Part shown: piece by piece, positions 3,909 to 44,185 of the stretch
Layout of the letters: each line of letters opens with the position of its first letter
How positions within the stretch are numbered: the first letter of the stretch is position 1
From: a virus
Lineage: Duplodnaviria; Heunggongvirae; Uroviricota; Caudoviricetes
IMG/VR virus record: IMGVR_UViG_3300045988_018548
Length of the DNA stretch: 44,185 nucleotides
Strand: one strand, 5' to 3'
The notes under the pieces: model-generated
Told to the model about the DNA's origin: nothing
Database searches by the model: none
Seen by the model: only the letters and a program-made list of their open reading frames with translations
Program-made: the position numbers and the translations under genes

Positions 3909-4168
3909 CCTCCCTCAGAGTCGTCGGCACGAGCATCATGATTCGATGCCGTTGTGAATGAGGCTTTCAGTCCGCCATCGAATACCCCTTTGAATTTAAA
4001 ATTGTTGCCAATTAATTCCAGATTATCGCGTAAGGCGAACCCGGGTTTCTTTCTTACCAGGCCCCATACGTCGACTATATTATCCTCGTCATACTCGTTC
4101 TCGTCCTGCAACACTATTACGTACTGCCCACCGCGTTTCGTTTTCACCAACTGACCCTTCTTAAACAT
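3899..4168 (-). CDS. hypothetical protein
   Basis: 89-aa ORF; GAGGAG RBS upstream of ATG 4168; first gene downstream of class II promoter at 4199..4232. Confidence 0.4.
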   Translation of the reverse strand: MFKKGQLVKTKRGGQYVIVLQDENEYDEDNIVDVWGLVRKKPGFALRDNLELIGNNFKFKGVFDGGLKASFTTASNHDARADDSEGGCR

Positions 4169-4198: not shown

Positions 4199-4232
4199 GT
4201 GAATAGTGTCCTATTATATTGGGGTGTGCAAG
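4199..4232 (-). promoter_or_regulatory. class II conserved promoter motif (TTGCAC-N17-CACTAT on minus strand)
   Basis: Minus-strand reading TTGCACACCCCAATATAATAGGACACTATTCAC; near-identical to motifs at 26307 and 35924. Confidence 0.5.
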
Positions 4233-4396
4233 AGAATAGTTACGATGCCGTTGTGATTCTTTCGTTTCTTAAAAGAGTACGCAACGCAGTGGGTGGGCGT
4301 TAGCCCACCCCAGCGGAGTGAAGTACTCTCTACCTTGCTTACGGCAACTATAGAAACTTTTAATTATCAGTGGCTTGGGTATTTAGGCGGGATTAA

Positions 4397-4540
4397 CAAT
4401 AGACTTTGGCCCTTCCGAAAGCGCCAGCGGAACTACACTCAAGTGCCTAATGGCACGCGTTGCGTTCCCTGCCGCTCCGCGGTCGCTTGCGATATCTCAC
4501 AAGCTCAGTGAAGCTTAGCATATTTTTAAGTAAAAGTCAA
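4397..4540 (+). repeat. ~144-bp intergenic element, copy A (paralog of 35715..35857)
   Basis: About 75% identity to copy B by eye, same orientation, with hairpins at matching positions (gtgcc-taat-ggcac; aagct-cagtg-aagctt followed by T-run). Confidence 0.8.
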
Positions 4541-4586
4541 TACCAGTAGCATCTTTTGTATCTTAGTAACTTTGTGTTCGGTTTTG

Positions 4587-4615
4587 GTTGCTTTTACAAA
4601 GTTACCGCCTTATAC
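4587..4615 (+). promoter_or_regulatory. sigma70-like promoter TTGCTT-N17-TATACT for the rightward early operon
   Basis: Hexamers read from sequence with 17-bp spacing, about 30 bp upstream of RBS AGGAG and ATG 4647. Confidence 0.5.
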
Positions 4616-4646
4616 TTCGATACATGTTACACAGGAGAGCGTGAAA

Positions 4647-4816
4647 TGACTATCAATGAAGTTGCAGAATTAATCGGCGTCACCCGCCAGACAATTAATA
4701 ACTGGATTAAGAGTGGAAAGTTTCCTGATTGCAGCGTTAAAGTAATGGGTCGCAGAATGCCGGGTACATTTGACCGTAATAAAGTTGAATCGTGGGTTAA
4801 AGAGAACGTTAAATAA
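4647..4816 (+). CDS. AlpA/excisionase-family HTH DNA-binding protein
   Basis: 56 aa; MTINEVAELIGVTRQTINNWIKSGKFP matches the AlpA-type HTH pattern; RBS AGGAG. Confidence 0.6.
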
Positions 4817-4874
4817 AAGAAAGCCCCGACGCGGTGAACGCCGAGGCCAAATTACTTGCTGAAGGAAATACAAC

Positions 4875-7163
4875 ATGTCCGATGTAATTTTATCCTACTC
4901 GTGGTCTCGTCGCAACGCGCGTGCAGAGAAAAAGGATATAAACGTCAGAACCACCCACACGGCAACACTGGACGACCTGAAAGAGCTAATCAAGCCGCTT
5001 GATGCTGTTCGTGGCGGGATTAACCCGAAGACCGCACCTGGCTATATCACTGCCGCGTGCGACTCGGCACACAGCACCGTAAAAGACCCGGAAACCGGTG
5101 ACTTTAAGCAAGCGCGTAAAGGCTTCTTCTATCGCTGCGATGCGTCTGTAAGCAAATCGTCGCTGGCGTATCTGGACTTCGACAGTGCAACACCGGAAGA
5201 GTATCAGGAAGCGGTGCGCCTGGTTAAGCGCAGCCGCCTGGTTATGTGCCTTTACACCACGGCGTCACATACCGATGAGTCCCCACGCTTTCGGGTCGTC
5301 ATGCCGCTTGCCCGCCCGGTTGAAGGCGGTGACATCATCCGCGTTCGTCATGGATTGCTAGAGCACTTCTTCAAAGGCATGGGGGCGGACCGCAGCGGGT
5401 TTACTCTGTCCCAGCCGATGTACCTGCCACCAGTTGGCTCGCAGGTTATCTGGTCGCGCCGCAACGACCTGATTGACCCGGACGAATTACTGGAAGGCAT
5501 CCCCGCCGTTGACGTTAGCAGCGCATCGGATTACCAGATACCGGAAGAACTGCGCACCGCGTTTACAGATGCGTTTGAAGCACTGGCATTCGAGTACGGC
5601 GGCATCATGACGCCGCGGGGCCTGAAGATGCCCGCTACGCCGGAACACGCAGAAAACTACAGCGACCCGACGCCGCGCCCGGACGACTTCCTGCTGTGTT
5701 TCCCGCGTGAAGGGTACGAAGCGCCGAACGTAACCATGATTCATGACACTGACATCACGGCGACCGAGGGCATGTCACCGAAGGAGGTGTGGAAGTATGC
5801 GTGCGACGCTACCGGGCTGCCGTTCAGTGAAGTTGCAGAGGCTATCGGATGGGGCGCGCGGGAGTCCGTTTCATGCAGCCTCGACGACCTGGAAGATGAT
5901 GACGAGGACTCAGGGGAGGACGAGGACTCAGGGGAGGACGAGCTACCGGAACCGTTAAAGGCTGATTTCGTCGTTGAGGGGTACATGCCGTCTGATTGCA
6001 TATGGGATATCGTCGGGGAGTCCGGTACGTATAAATCCTTCTATACGCTGGGGATGATGTACCTCAGCGCCGCCGGATACCGGTTTGCGGGGGCGGACAC
6101 CCAGCGTTGCCACCATTTCTATATCGACGGGGAGGGTGGCGCGGCTACTCGCACCCGTATCGACGCGCTCGCGGCTAAGTATGGCGGGGAAGGTAAAGAT
6201 TATGTACATGTTATCGATATGGGCGAGGTCGGAAAACTGAAAAGCCTGATTAAGTTAATGCGTGAAACTGCTGGCGACGAGCCAATCGGCATGGTTGCGT
6301 TCGATACTCTCAACCAGACACTGGCTCTGACGATTGATAAGTTCGACGAGAACAGTTCATCGACGGCAATCGGTATGGGTAAGGTTATCGCCATCCTGAA
6401 AGAAGTACGTGACGCGACTAAAGCTGCGGTGGGCGTCGTCCACCATACACCGAAGGGCGGAAAGAAAGCCCGTGGCAGCGGGGCGCTGTATGCGGGTGTC
6501 GACGTGGAACTGACAATCGAACGTGCAACCGACCGCCAGATAAACGTATACCACTCTAAGTTTAAGCACGGCCCTCAACAGAAAACGGTTGGCATGGTAC
6601 TTGAGTCAGTACAGTTCCGTGAAGCACCGCCACCGAAAGAGTATCGCGCTGTCGAGTTCCTCGGCAGCACCGAGGGGTACGGCACAATCGTAAACCTCGA
6701 CCTGCCCGAGCCACACAAGGCGCTTGTATTGATGCCGTGGGGCTTCGAACCGTTCAAGACTGACGAGGAGAAAGAACGGGAAGAAGGGCTGCCGAAAGAA
6801 GGTAAAGAAAACGTACGTAAAACCGTAGAGAACGCTGTCAACAGCTCGGAGGCCACGATACTGGCAGCGTTTGAACTGGCGGAAGGAACCTACAACGGCA
6901 ACGAAGGCATCACAGTCGCAGCAGCTAATAAGCTCGCACAGTCAGACCCCAACGCAAAGGCGTTTAACTCCAAAGAAGCCATAGAACGCGGGAAGATTAA
7001 GAAAATGGTTGAGGCTGGGTATCTTGTTCCGGGGACTGACGAAAACAATCAGATAATCCCTGGCCGTTACAGGCTGAACACCCGGATAACTGATAACAAG
7101 ATTCCGAAGACAATATACGAACCGAATGAGATGCTGATAGTGACAGAGGAGGATTTGGAATGA
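4875..7163 (+). CDS. bifunctional primase-helicase (AEP-type primase N-terminus, RecA-like P-loop helicase C-terminus)
   Basis: 762 aa; N-terminal LDFD and TTASH motifs; Walker A GESGTYKS; Walker B-like MVAFDTL; acidic linker between domains. Confidence 0.8.
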   Translation: MSDVILSYSWSRRNARAEKKDINVRTTHTATLDDLKELIKPLDAVRGGINPKTAPGYITAACDSAHSTVKDPETGDFKQARKGFFYRCDASVSKSSLAYLDFDSATPEEYQEAVRLVKRSRLVMCLYTTASHTDESPRFRVVMPLARPVEGGDIIRVRHGLLEHFFKGMGADRSGFTLSQPMYLPPVGSQVIWSRRNDLIDPDELLEGIPAVDVSSASDYQIPEELRTAFTDAFEALAFEYGGIMTPRGLKMPATPEHAENYSDPTPRPDDFLLCFPREGYEAPNVTMIHDTDITATEGMSPKEVWKYACDATGLPFSEVAEAIGWGARESVSCSLDDLEDDDEDSGEDEDSGEDELPEPLKADFVVEGYMPSDCIWDIVGESGTYKSFYTLGMMYLSAAGYRFAGADTQRCHHFYIDGEGGAATRTRIDALAAKYGGEGKDYVHVIDMGEVGKLKSLIKLMRETAGDEPIGMVAFDTLNQTLALTIDKFDENSSSTAIGMGKVIAILKEVRDATKAAVGVVHHTPKGGKKARGSGALYAGVDVELTIERATDRQINVYHSKFKHGPQQKTVGMVLESVQFREAPPPKEYRAVEFLGSTEGYGTIVNLDLPEPHKALVLMPWGFEPFKTDEEKEREEGLPKEGKENVRKTVENAVNSSEATILAAFELAEGTYNGNEGITVAAANKLAQSDPNAKAFNSKEAIERGKIKKMVEAGYLVPGTDENNQIIPGRYRLNTRITDNKIPKTIYEPNEMLIVTEEDLE
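5901..5942. repeat. 18-bp tandem duplication (gacgaggactcaggggag x2.3) in primase-helicase acidic linker
   Basis: Perfect contiguous copies encoding DEDSGE DEDSGE. Confidence 0.85.
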
Positions 7164-7724: not shown

Positions 7725-7797
7725 TTGATATGTGAATAGTACCATATTAATTATTTTAGAAAAGCCCATTGACATGTGAATAGTTCACTATTATAGT
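7725..7797 (+). promoter_or_regulatory. early promoter TTGACA-N17-TATAGT (7769..7797) with two TGTGAATAGT operator-like sites
   Basis: Consensus -35 and near-consensus -10 at 17-bp spacing; dyad AATAGT-TC-ACTATT in spacer; second TGTGAATAGT copy 44 bp upstream. Confidence 0.6.
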
Positions 7798-10365: not shown

Positions 10366-10394
10366 TTGACACCTGAATAGTTAGCTATTATAGT
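10366..10394 (+). promoter_or_regulatory. promoter TTGACA-N17-TATAGT with AATAG-N4-CTATT dyad in spacer
   Basis: Hexamers and spacing read directly; same architecture as 7769..7797 and 14210..14238. Confidence 0.6.
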
Positions 10395-13960: not shown

Positions 13961-14241
13961 CTCCGGAAGGCAAGATTCAGAAATACGCAAAAGACCGATT
14001 CGAGGCCATTGGCGGCCTCGTTCGCAAGATGGCATTTGAAGGCCGGCGAGCCGCCATGGACCTCCTGGTAATTCTCCCCGGTGGCATCGTCTGGTTCGTC
14101 GAGATTAAGAAAGACGAAAATACGAAGCCAGACCCGCACCAGATACGTGAACACGAGAGATTCCGAAAACGCGGCGCAAATGTTTTTGTCGTTGGGTCGT
14201 TCAAACAGGTTGACGACCTAATAGCGAACTATTATAGTTAG
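13957..14241 (+). CDS. VRR-NUC domain nuclease
   Basis: 94 aa; ...VWFVEIKKDENTKPDPHQ... matches VRR-NUC D/E-x-K core by eye. Confidence 0.6.
   Translation: MTPEGKIQKYAKDRFEAIGGLVRKMAFEGRRAAMDLLVILPGGIVWFVEIKKDENTKPDPHQIREHERFRKRGANVFVVGSFKQVDDLIANYYS
14210..14238 (+). promoter_or_regulatory. promoter TTGACG-N17-TATAGT with AATAG-N4-CTATT dyad, embedded in 3' end of VRR-NUC gene
   Basis: Hexamers and spacing read directly. Confidence 0.55.
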
Positions 14242-26306: not shown

Positions 26307-26342
26307 TTGCGCACCCCAACATAATAGGATACTATTCACTTA
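26307..26342 (+). promoter_or_regulatory. class II conserved promoter motif (TTGCGC-N17-TACTAT)
   Basis: TTGCGCACCCCAACATAATAGGATACTATTCACTTA, about 35 bp upstream of ATG 26377. Confidence 0.55.
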
Positions 26343-35108: not shown

Positions 35109-35372
35109 CTATTCCAGAATATTCCTCACGTAATCCTGCAACATGAACACTTTCAGTCGCAGTTGCCGTGCGCATTCGGCGTTCTGAACGTCAATAGCCA
35201 AATCCTCGTCTGCGTCGCTACTTGGCGGGGCCAGTTTGCACGGCGGCTGCATCATCGTCGTATCCGGGTATGGAATTGGCGTTTGCGACGGCGCGGGACT
35301 TGAGCTGCACGCGCTCATGGTCAAAAGTGCACACGCTGCGGCCAGGCGTTTTAATGTACTTAACGACTTCAC
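35109..35372 (-). CDS. o-spanin (Rz1-like outer-membrane lipoprotein)
   Basis: 87 aa; signal peptide with lipobox-like LLTMSAC, proline-rich mature region; overlaps 3' end of i-spanin in another frame. Confidence 0.6.
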   Translation of the reverse strand: MKSLSTLKRLAAACALLTMSACSSSPAPSQTPIPYPDTTMMQPPCKLAPPSSDADEDLAIDVQNAECARQLRLKVFMLQDYVRNILE

Positions 35373-35604
35373 GGGTAATCACCTCCGATTTCGTCTTGCC
35401 TTCGTTGTCCGCGGCTGCGGCCTTTGATTCGTCCTGCTGCTGCCGTTGTGTTTTCTTAGCTAACTCAGCCTGTGCTTTCTGCTGTTGCTGCGAAACGAGA
35501 TTCGCCCGGCCTTCGTTCCAGCCGGCGCGATACTGGTAGATGCCGTGTGCGTAAGCCAGGATGATGAAACATGCCCCCGCTACGACAGTCGCTTTAAGAT
35601 TCAT
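35218..35604 (-). CDS. i-spanin (Rz-like)
   Basis: 128 aa; N-terminal TM helix VVAGACFIILAYAHGIY then Gln/Lys/Ala-rich coiled coil. Confidence 0.65.
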   Translation of the reverse strand: MNLKATVVAGACFIILAYAHGIYQYRAGWNEGRANLVSQQQQKAQAELAKKTQRQQQDESKAAAADNEGKTKSEVITREVVKYIKTPGRSVCTFDHERVQLKSRAVANANSIPGYDDDAAAVQTGPAK

Positions 35605-35628
35605 GTTTCTCCTTTCTCGATAAGTAAA

Positions 35629-35648
35629 GCCCCGCCATAAAGCGGGGC
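35629..35648 (-). terminator. minus-strand terminator (gccccgc-cataaa-gcggggc then U-rich)
   Basis: 7-bp GC stem; minus transcript continues UUUACUUAUC; lies between head genes and spanin start. Confidence 0.5.
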
Positions 35649-35714: not shown

Positions 35715-35857
35715 CAATAGAGTACGGCCCTTCCGAACGCGTCAGCGTAACTACACTCAGGACTTACGTCCCGCTCCGTTACCTGCCCGCGCCGCGGTCG
35801 CTTGTTCATACTTCACAAGCTCAGGTGGAGCTTATCATATTTTTAGTGAAAAGTCAA
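35715..35857 (+). repeat. ~143-bp intergenic element, copy B (paralog of 4397..4540)
   Basis: Aligned by eye to copy A; hairpins ggac-ttac-gtcc and aagct-caggtgg-agctt at matching positions. Confidence 0.8.
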
Positions 35858-35870
35858 CTATTCGAATAGT
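35857..35870. promoter_or_regulatory. perfect 14-bp palindrome ACTATTCGAATAGT (operator-like)
   Basis: Self-complementary; half-sites match the AATAG/CTATT dyad in promoters. Confidence 0.5.
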
Positions 35871-35923
35871 TTATTCTAACATTTACAATTACGAAGAATA
35901 ACTGGAATACGTAAACAAATAGT

Positions 35924-35957
35924 TTGCAGACACCAATATAATAGGGTACTATTCACT
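35924..35957 (+). promoter_or_regulatory. class II conserved promoter motif (TTGCAG-N17-TACTAT)
   Basis: TTGCAGACACCAATATAATAGGGTACTATTCACTCA, about 25 bp upstream of ATG 35982. Confidence 0.55.
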
Positions 35958-43945: not shown

Positions 43946-44091
43946 TTCTCATCTCCTGCATAAGCTGCTTTCAGTGTCTGCATCGCGGCGAACCAGAACG
44001 CGTCCGCCGGAATGCTGTTGCTCAGGTTACCAACGGCGATGCGTGCCATCAGTTGTGCGTCTTTGAATGCTTCGATATCTGTGATTTTCAT
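43942..44091 (-). CDS. small hypothetical early protein, first gene of leftward early operon
   Basis: 49-aa ORF with RBS GGAG; start codon lies inside the 119-bp terminal repeat. Confidence 0.3.
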   Translation of the reverse strand: MKITDIEAFKDAQLMARIAVGNLSNSIPADAFWFAAMQTLKAAYAGDEK

Positions 44092-44185
44092 TTCTCTCTA
44101 CTCCGTTCTCGTTGTCGATGGAGTAAATATAATAGGGTCGAGGGTAATAGTCAACTAGTCATTGCAGAAAATAGATAAAAAAAAT
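44067..44185. repeat. terminal direct repeat, exact copy of 1..119
   Basis: 119/119 nt identity to window start. Confidence 0.9.
44126..44154 (-). promoter_or_regulatory. minus-strand promoter TTGACT-N17-TATATT for the leftward early operon
   Basis: Hexamers at 17-bp spacing; lies within the terminal repeat, so also present at 60..88. Confidence 0.5.

Follow-up and report, generated by a model that had tools for sequence, protein, structure and literature searches.

Results

Two copies of a non-coding element in a Kagunavirus genome

What does an intergenic element of about 144 bp do when it is present twice in one phage genome, with hairpins at matching positions but of different sequence, and from which strand is it read? 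The element was noticed in a stretch of phage DNA of 44,185 nt (hereafter the window), whose best matches were Kagunavirus (Guernseyvirinae) phages with identities of up to 99%. The ends of the window overlap exactly by 119 bp (direct repeat, 1-119 = 44067-44185), so the genome comprises 44,066 bp in a circular or permuted assembly; its orientation here is the reverse of that of annotated phage Schulenburg.

The positions of the two copies (A and B) and of their features are listed in Table 1. The original prediction had described two copies in the same orientation, about 75% identical by eye, and this was borne out by MAFFT and blastn, which gave 78.9% identity over ~147 nt. A profile HMM built from homologues recovered both copies (A, E=1e-36; B, E=1e-48), and neither this model nor a covariance model found a third copy in the window (2 matches each). 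Both copies are intergenic and lie between divergent genes, with gene starts at 4168 (-) and 4646 (+) on either side of copy A and at 35604 (-) and 35982 (+) on either side of copy B. The alignment gaps between A and B (4, 1, 1, 1 and 3 nt) are in the main not multiples of three, and the element was thus considered non-coding; a protein-coding reading was dropped because no frame survives these gaps and the short ORFs annotated do not agree with one another. Such ORFs appear in GenBank records as short hypothetical proteins over the element, on strands that differ among records (locus L075, 6328-6438, 37869-38012 and 38040-38144; also L321, L323 and L327), and are probably spurious gene calls.

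Gene functions were taken from PHROGs. To the left of copy A lie small (-) proteins without known function; to the left of copy B, scaffold and major head genes (-) accompany the spanin gene, and to its right an 83-aa ORF (+) is followed by a Hoc-like decoration gene (-). Synteny with Schulenburg and PVP-SE2 was used to infer the block layout. Leftward block 1 extends from site A and takes in small genes, the holin, endolysin, terminase and portal genes and the Hoc-like head-decoration gene; leftward block 2 extends from site B as far as the tailspike and takes in the spanin, scaffold, major head and tail genes.

Table 1. Coordinates in the window of the two copies, their predicted features and neighbouring genes
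Feature	Position	Strand	Details
Copy A	4397-4540	(-) by covariance model	Model match 4408-4505; 74.4 bits, E=1.5e-12
Predicted sigma-70 extended -10 promoter A	4512-4540	(-)	-35 TTGACT 4540-4535; TG 4520-4519; -10 TAAGCT 4517-4512
Hairpin P3, copy A	4485-4504	(-)	GCTTG, 10-nt loop, CAAGC
Long irregular hairpin, copy A	4415-4482	(-)	Interior helices H1-H4, 4420-4476
Flanking blocks, copy A	4408-4419; 4477-4483		GGCCCTTCCGAA; CCGCGGT
GC-rich hairpin after A	4291-4310	(-)	GGGTGGGC-TAAC-GCCCACCC; ~92 nt downstream of core A
Second promoter-like motif	4199-4220	(-)	AATATAATAGGACACTATTCAC; between hairpin A and first leftward gene
Helix-turn-helix protein	4646-4816	(+)	PHROGs; right of copy A, with helicase-primase (+)
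Copy B	35715-35857	(-) by covariance model	Model match 35726-35821; 106.6 bits, E=6e-19
Predicted extended -10 promoter B	35829-35857	(-)	-35 TTGACT 35857-35852; TG 35837-35836; -10 TAAGCT 35834-35829
Hairpin P3, copy B	35800-35820	(-)	GCTTG, 11-nt loop, CAAGC
Long irregular hairpin, copy B	35733-35797	(-)	Interior 35738-35791
Flanking blocks, copy B	35726-35737; 35792-35798		
Predicted intrinsic terminator after B	35619-35648	(-)	GCCCCGC-TTTAT-GGCGGGGC, then TTTACTTATC
Rz-like spanin	35218-35604	(-)	PHROGs; left of copy B

Seven variants across the Guernseyvirinae

Homologues were found across the Guernseyvirinae, with ~450 phage-collection records matching the element. Copy A or B was matched by 181 of these records (Escherichia, Salmonella, Raoultella and Shigella phages), and a further 268, almost all from Salmonella Jerseyvirus, carried a type termed C. 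We gathered 52 distinct sequences from IMG/VR, metagenome and GenBank loci, which fell into seven variants: A1 (window copy A), A2, A3 (the Golestan and Schulenburg type), A4, B (window copy B), B3 and C (Jerseyvirus). Kagunavirus genomes carry two copies each, and PVP-SE2, the only Jerseyvirus genome searched by model, carries one, which is the B-site copy; a second Jerseyvirus copy was found neither by blastn (one place per record) nor by the covariance model (PVP-SE2). When contigs were scanned for the pattern of invariant blocks, the metagenome matches were mostly chance hits in GC-rich sequence, with a few 44-kb phage contigs among those listed, and the genome-contig matches listed were chance only, from unrelated GC-rich organisms.

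The two sites differ in their history. Copy B is 98-100% identical among relatives, against 77-100% for the adjacent coding DNA, a conservation that may be read as a sign of selection. Copy A varies; it belongs to a mosaic region, and at site A the level of identity shifts abruptly. One copy, L019 2185-2328 (IMG/VR contig 3300045988_039442), is chimeric, with B-type flanks and an A4-type interior, which suggests recombination or gene conversion between a phage's own two copies or between co-infecting phages. A conserved recombination boundary had been among the roles first suggested, and the chimera and the abrupt change of identity fit it, but only as a side effect of the element.

Two further observations were made on the collected loci. 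Between the A2/A3-type core and the hairpin that follows it there is a (GAGT)n microsatellite (L324, ~353-377; also L075, L323 and L325-L328), with ~6-7 repeats in Golestan and ~3-4 in others. The taxonomy line of L321 (OR594183.1, phage vB_EcoM_SHAK7858) reads Autographiviridae, Kayfunavirus; around site A this record is 87.5% identical to the window with the same gene layout, so it is probably mislabelled.

A conserved fold maintained by compensatory changes

All seven variants share one fold, composed of a short hairpin (P3) and a long irregular hairpin set between near-invariant blocks, which read GGCCCTTCCGAA and CCGCGGT in the plus-strand sense. The segment between the blocks is 51-57 nt long and differs in sequence, and it always forms one long irregular hairpin. 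On the minus strand the flanking blocks pair with each other as CCG(C)GG/UUCGG. The outer stem is AGCG/CGCT, CGCG/CGCG or TGCG/CGCA, and the middle stem consists of CAG/CTG plus GGAAC/GTTCC, GTAAC/GTTAC and others; the internal loop is purine-rich and GAGUGUA-like on one side. The tip stem is different in each variant (GTGCC/GGCAC, GGAC/GTCC, CACGT/ACGTG, GTGC/GCAC, GGGCGC/GCGCCC, GGGCGT/ACGCCC). The first covarying hairpin reported from the window (GTGCC-TAAT-GGCAC in one copy against GGAC-TTAC-GTCC in the other) was recovered, and five more variants had other complementary stems at this place. P3 adjoins the CCGCGGT block; in type C it reads ACGCT-GAA-AGCGT, with four of five pairs changed on both sides relative to the A and B types, a variation that amounts to a single event, type C versus the rest.

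Plain MAFFT followed by RNAalifold misaligned the variable helices and recovered the outer stems alone; we therefore used an alignment of 26 distinct cores, hand-made to fit the fold and padded with N so that MAFFT left it unchanged. These 26 cores represent only ~7 lineages. Across the alignment, 97.6% of cells were paired on the minus strand and 88.8% for the same pairs on the plus strand, and 14 of 29 pairs were changed on both sides, whichever strand was read. The covariation score was 0.391 on the minus strand versus 0.114 in shuffles and 0.361 on the plus strand versus 0.109, with 0 of 500 shuffles reaching the observed value in either case. When partners were slid by 1-3 columns, pairing dropped to 25-41% (minus) and 22-40% (plus). 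Because compensatory changes are seen in 14 of 29 pairs, a single-stranded structure of the core is well supported by the alignment. The wider set of 26 cores and seven variants thus retains the structure that folding and covariance modelling of homologues had been proposed to reveal, and the compensatory changes that keep its pairing bear out the view that the element is conserved rather than a neutral duplication and point to a structured RNA or cis-regulatory element.

Strand of the element and a predicted minus-strand promoter

A strand call from G-U versus A-C pairs, made on single polymorphisms and on the whole alignment, favoured neither strand decisively and was set aside. Single-site polymorphisms favoured each strand about equally; the pairing advantage of the minus strand came mostly from two invariant G-U pairs of the flanking blocks and two tip pairs, all chosen from the minus-strand fold, and in the middle helix, H3, the plus strand pairs better (96.9% vs 93.2% on the minus strand). 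Thermodynamic models lean to the minus strand, with a mean z-score of -2.12 (plus, -1.58), a structure conservation index of 0.83 (plus, 0.73) and a consensus energy of -32.2 kcal/mol (plus, -22.0). Context is the clearer guide to the strand. In Jerseyvirus and in K1G-like Kagunavirus phages the order is neck-whisker or head-decoration gene, terminator, element, spanin, and both neighbour genes are leftward with no rightward gene following, so that only a leftward role fits these genomes. The claim that the element precedes rightward transcription units held for the two window copies, both in divergent regions, but not for these relatives.

In both copies the sequence next to P3 has the features of a sigma-70 extended -10 promoter on the minus strand, namely a TTGACA-like -35 box, a 17-nt spacer, TGn and TAnnnT (Table 1), with start sites inferred from the promoter positions near 4505 (A) and near 35822 (B). 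The pattern TTGACT-N14-TGn-TAAGCT had two matches in the window, both in the copies, against 0.21 expected. Among 50 distinct homologues, the -35 box was TTGACT in 40, TAGACT in 7, TAGATT in 2 and TCGACT in 1, the TG at -15/-14 was present in all 50, and the -10 box was TAAGCT in 41 and TACGCT in 9 (type C has TAGACT and TACGCT). The spacer was always 17 nt long, yet had 21 different sequences, and the bases between the -10 box and P3 were also variable. We predict a promoter because the hexamers, the TG and the spacing are kept while the spacer sequence varies. The TAAGCT hexamer matches the -10 consensus at 3 of 6 positions, and a generic promoter scan listed neither promoter; the PVP-SE2 record independently annotates a minus-strand promoter at the homologous place. 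The resemblance of A to B extends up to the -35 box and ends precisely there. Counted from the predicted start of transcription, P3 of the A and B types begins 1-2 bases on; for type C, that start is placed at or within the 5' arm of P3.

These positions bear on the end of the element, where an AAGCT...AGCTT hairpin followed by a T-run had been described. Both are present in the two window copies (the hairpin with a C/A mismatch on the plus strand in copy A), but they are not conserved beyond the window: type C has a direct repeat in place of the hairpin and an A-run in place of the T-run. The 3' arm of P3 and the variable start region, together with the -10 hexamer and the AT-rich spacer, make up this stretch. 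Its interpretation as an end signal was not upheld, as it coincides with the -10 box, spacer and -35 box of the conserved minus-strand promoter. A promoter plus leader on the minus strand is, in our judgement, somewhat more probable than not; the element most likely runs leftward, and the orientation first assigned to it is probably wrong.

The alternative on the opposite strand, which takes up the small RNA of the original prediction, is a small or antisense RNA that would extend from near CAATAGA to the AAGCTC/GAGCTT hairpin and T-run. Through antisense pairing or transcriptional interference, such an RNA could hold down the leftward promoter or its leader, and in Jerseyvirus it would end at the next bidirectional terminator. 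The helices can form on this strand too, as the plus-strand pairing and the 14 compensated pairs given above show, and some changes give G-U there but A-C on the minus strand (CGCG/CGTG in L007, TAG/CTG in the Golestan type, GAGGC/GTTTC in L074). A hairpin found by eye, TTTGG-CCCTT-CCGAA, is a perfect 6-bp stem in the Golestan variant, and a weak terminator-like site lies at 35817-35833 (+). However, neither a consensus scan nor inspection by eye found a plus-strand promoter upstream of A or B, the terminal hairpin and T-run are missing in Jerseyvirus, the T-run is interrupted in several variants, and the U-tract starts ~6 nt past a 5-6 bp AT-rich stem. The invariant flanks are unable to pair on this strand (alignment columns 11/83 and 12/82), and its z-scores and structure conservation index are the weaker ones. 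We regard a plus-strand RNA as unlikely.

Other promoter-like and promoter-flanking sequences were observed in the window. A perfect 12-bp palindrome, CTATTCGAATAG (35858-35869), abuts the -35 box of the B promoter, and a direct repeat, GAATAAC-TGGAATA (35897-35909), lies further upstream; both are kept in B, partly kept in type C and absent at site A, and a regulator of the B promoter may bind to them. In a second promoter-like family, AAYATAATAGGryACTATTCAC, a consensus TATAAT is joined to a conserved sequence that resembles an initial transcribed region or an operator. The AATATAATAGGACACTATTCAC-type motif had four matches in the window against 0 expected, at 4199-4220 (-), 35935-35956 (+), 26318-26339 (+) and 7776-7797 (-), and stands before the first leftward gene of site A and, at site B, before the 83-aa ORF that runs rightward; this family may be an early promoter class. 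With this motif downstream of the copy A promoter, site A has two predicted leftward promoters in tandem. Near-consensus promoters of the form TTGACA/TTGACG-17-TATAGT occur at 7769-7797, 10366-10394 and 14210-14238 (+), in the rightward replication module, and look like a third promoter class.

Terminator-like hairpins downstream of the core

In every variant a GC-rich hairpin follows the core on the minus strand at a distance of 55-96 nt. After copy B this hairpin is a predicted intrinsic terminator of canonical form, with a stem of 8 pairs (7 G-C; 35648-35629) and TTTACTTATC directly after it; for the B type, dG is -14 to -18 kcal/mol and 5 of the next 8 bases are T. Its distance downstream from the core is 77 nt, and the T-rich tail stops ~15 nt short of the spanin start codon (35604). 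Relatives include compensated variants of the terminator stem, GCCCTGC/GCAGGGC in B and GCCCGAC/GTCGGGC in C. The hairpin after copy A has no adjacent U-run and is therefore not a canonical terminator. Within block 1, minus-strand terminator-like sites were found at 3297-3276 and 38640-38625. At site A of Jerseyvirus (L329, PVP-SE2, 4582-5475), a 900-bp intergenic region lacks a homologous core; inspected by eye, it has a leftward TTGACA-17-TAAGTT, hairpins and then a GC hairpin with a U-run, a parallel layout. The motif GCCGUA (minus strand) recurs downstream of the core in all types.

The serial order of predicted promoter, structured leader, terminator and then lysis and structural genes suggests a logic of regulated or processive antitermination, as known from lambda PR'/Q, lambda nut/N and HK022 put. 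Read-through would be needed because terminator-like sites lie inside block 1 and a second promoter-like motif lies below the site A promoter; it would be needed at site B since no other conserved promoter-like signal was noted before the first block 2 gene. Leader-peptide attenuation was rejected: the B leader has a single frame with an AUG start (36 aa), and neither A1 nor type C conserves it.

Rfam 15 gave no match at gathering thresholds over the whole window, so the search proposed for the element recognised no family. At E<=10, both intergenic regions gave chance-level matches only, such as OrzO-P at 17.8 bits (threshold 60) and wcaG at 14.7 (42).

Discussion

We tentatively interpret each copy as a promoter and structured leader RNA controlling read-through into both long leftward gene blocks, and hold this reading at close to, but somewhat below, an even chance. 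A host sigma-70 extended -10 promoter would be followed at once by a ~100-nt structured leader RNA on the minus strand, in the order short 5' hairpin, ACCGCGG, long irregular hairpin and block UUCGGAAGGGCC, with the GC-rich hairpin 55-96 nt on, and one such module would stand at the head of each long leftward gene block. The nascent leader, alone or with a phage or host protein bound, would render RNA polymerase resistant to the terminator just after the leader and to those inside the blocks. Late genes would then be reached only by transcripts begun at these two promoters, and polymerase that was not modified would make a short RNA of ~200 nt ending at the hairpin.

The same leader evidence would serve a different role, in which the long hairpin, of ~22 bp interrupted by internal loops, serves as a site of processing, by RNase III or otherwise, or of stability control; it would set mRNA half-life or translation of the first genes and have no effect on termination. 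The length and the irregular internal-loop shape of the hairpin are typical of RNase III substrates, and it is repeated at operon heads. Phage T7 has such sites, irregular internal-loop hairpins repeated in leaders and between genes and similar across copies, and the lambda N leader is a processing-site parallel. The element resembles the T7 sites in having repeated irregular hairpins with an internal loop and similar shape across copies; it differs in that there are two copies only, each tied to a predicted promoter, with near-invariant single-stranded flanks. Those flanks and the GAGUGUA side of the loop are conserved far beyond what a generic double-stranded RNA substrate needs, and a processing site leaves the terminator directly downstream of B unexplained. 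We give this role a low probability.

A further reading takes the product as an independent minus-strand RNA of ~200 nt, terminated at the downstream hairpin, with a target in trans such as a host protein or host RNA; the two copies would be paralogues. Copy B, with its predicted promoter, structured core and terminator, would make a complete small-RNA gene. Copy A has no proper terminator, though, and at site B no conserved promoter-like signal other than this promoter was noted from the upstream terminator to the first gene of the head/tail block, which makes read-through necessary there. A trans-acting RNA is accordingly quite improbable in our view.

Equally doubtful is a DNA-level element, whether a regulator-binding region, a replication origin or single-strand initiation site, or a recombination boundary, in which the stems matter as DNA hairpins or not at all. 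The wobble evidence, which favours neither strand, is compatible with it, as are the helicase-primase module adjoining copy A, the chimeric copy L019 and the abrupt identity change at site A. Against it, the stems have been replaced completely yet their pairing was kept, which double-stranded DNA binding does not require; copy B has head genes around it and is far removed from those for replication, and Jerseyvirus keeps only the B-site copy. A replication origin was rejected, as no short repeated motifs were seen in the core.

The read-through reading can be set beside three known systems. The put RNAs of phage HK022 act in cis, contact the beta' zinc-binding domain of RNA polymerase and suppress terminators; differences between their copies keep pairing. 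The two similar put copies lie downstream of two promoters, form two stem-loops and act on RNA polymerase as RNA only (PMC9378689). The element resembles put in that each genome has two similar copies closely following predicted promoters, in its predicted fold of two stem-loops, in the pairing-preserving differences between copies and in the terminators downstream. It differs in that the core is ~100 nt, compared with ~70 nt for put, and its hairpins are 7 nt apart; it is also carried by a virulent phage and stands in front of leftward lysis, packaging, head and tail blocks, not of early operons. Covariance model R1, which scored Guernseyvirinae copies at 57.8-106.6 bits, had no match in the whole HK022 genome at E<=10; given this and the differences in size and spacing, membership in the put family was rejected.

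In phage lambda, a sigma-70-type promoter, PR', is followed by qut, a leader of ~200 nt (6S RNA), the intrinsic terminator tR' and then lysis and structural genes. The element has a comparable layout, with a predicted promoter, a leader of ~200 nt and a terminator directly upstream of lysis and structural genes, and a short terminated RNA is likewise predicted. Q loads at a sigma-dependent pause (PMC7171158). Q reads a DNA site at the promoter, but the part of the element that is conserved and covaries is an RNA fold of the leader. In Jerseyvirus alone, the -10 hexamer is repeated early in the transcribed region (TACGCT twice), and no Q-family antiterminator gene is listed in the Schulenburg or PVP-SE2 annotation. 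As with lambda nutL and nutR, two copies of an RNA signal lie in the leaders of two operons, and as in the nut/N system the hairpin could be read by a phage protein that makes RNA polymerase termination-resistant. Unlike boxB, which depends on its loop, the tip loop here varies (GUAA, AUUA, CUCG, CACA and others; minus strand), and no boxA-like sequence was seen in the variants, so the element has neither the boxA nor the conserved boxB loop of lambda nut. Of these three systems, HK022 put appears closest in form, by a likeness in logic, not in sequence.

No description of this RNA was found in Rfam, annotated records or the searchable literature, nor were start-site data for Guernseyvirinae or an account of how these phages time late genes with host polymerase only found there. 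The one transcriptome paper found gives gene-level classes only, and strand-specific RNA-seq has been published for phage vB_Eco_K1B4 (PMC12645636).

Taken together, the element is best described as a putative cis-acting leader RNA tied to transcription read-through; the chance that it represents a second RNA-only antiterminator family is small. Such a processive antiterminator, unrelated to put and ~100 nt long, would bind and reprogramme host RNA polymerase by itself; we think this doubtful. If it were true that the RNA acts on RNA polymerase without a protein, this would be only the second such family after put, a polymerase-modifying RNA of ~100 nt without homology to put, and virulent siphoviruses may use such an RNA for lysis, packaging and structural genes. 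Few E. coli and Salmonella phages are isolated for therapy and food safety as often as those of the Guernseyvirinae (Kagunavirus and Jerseyvirus). For these phages, a compensated RNA fold heading both leftward blocks is a concrete candidate for the late switch; the element also offers a new RNA motif for Rfam, and its compact promoter-leader-terminator cassette could serve phage engineering.
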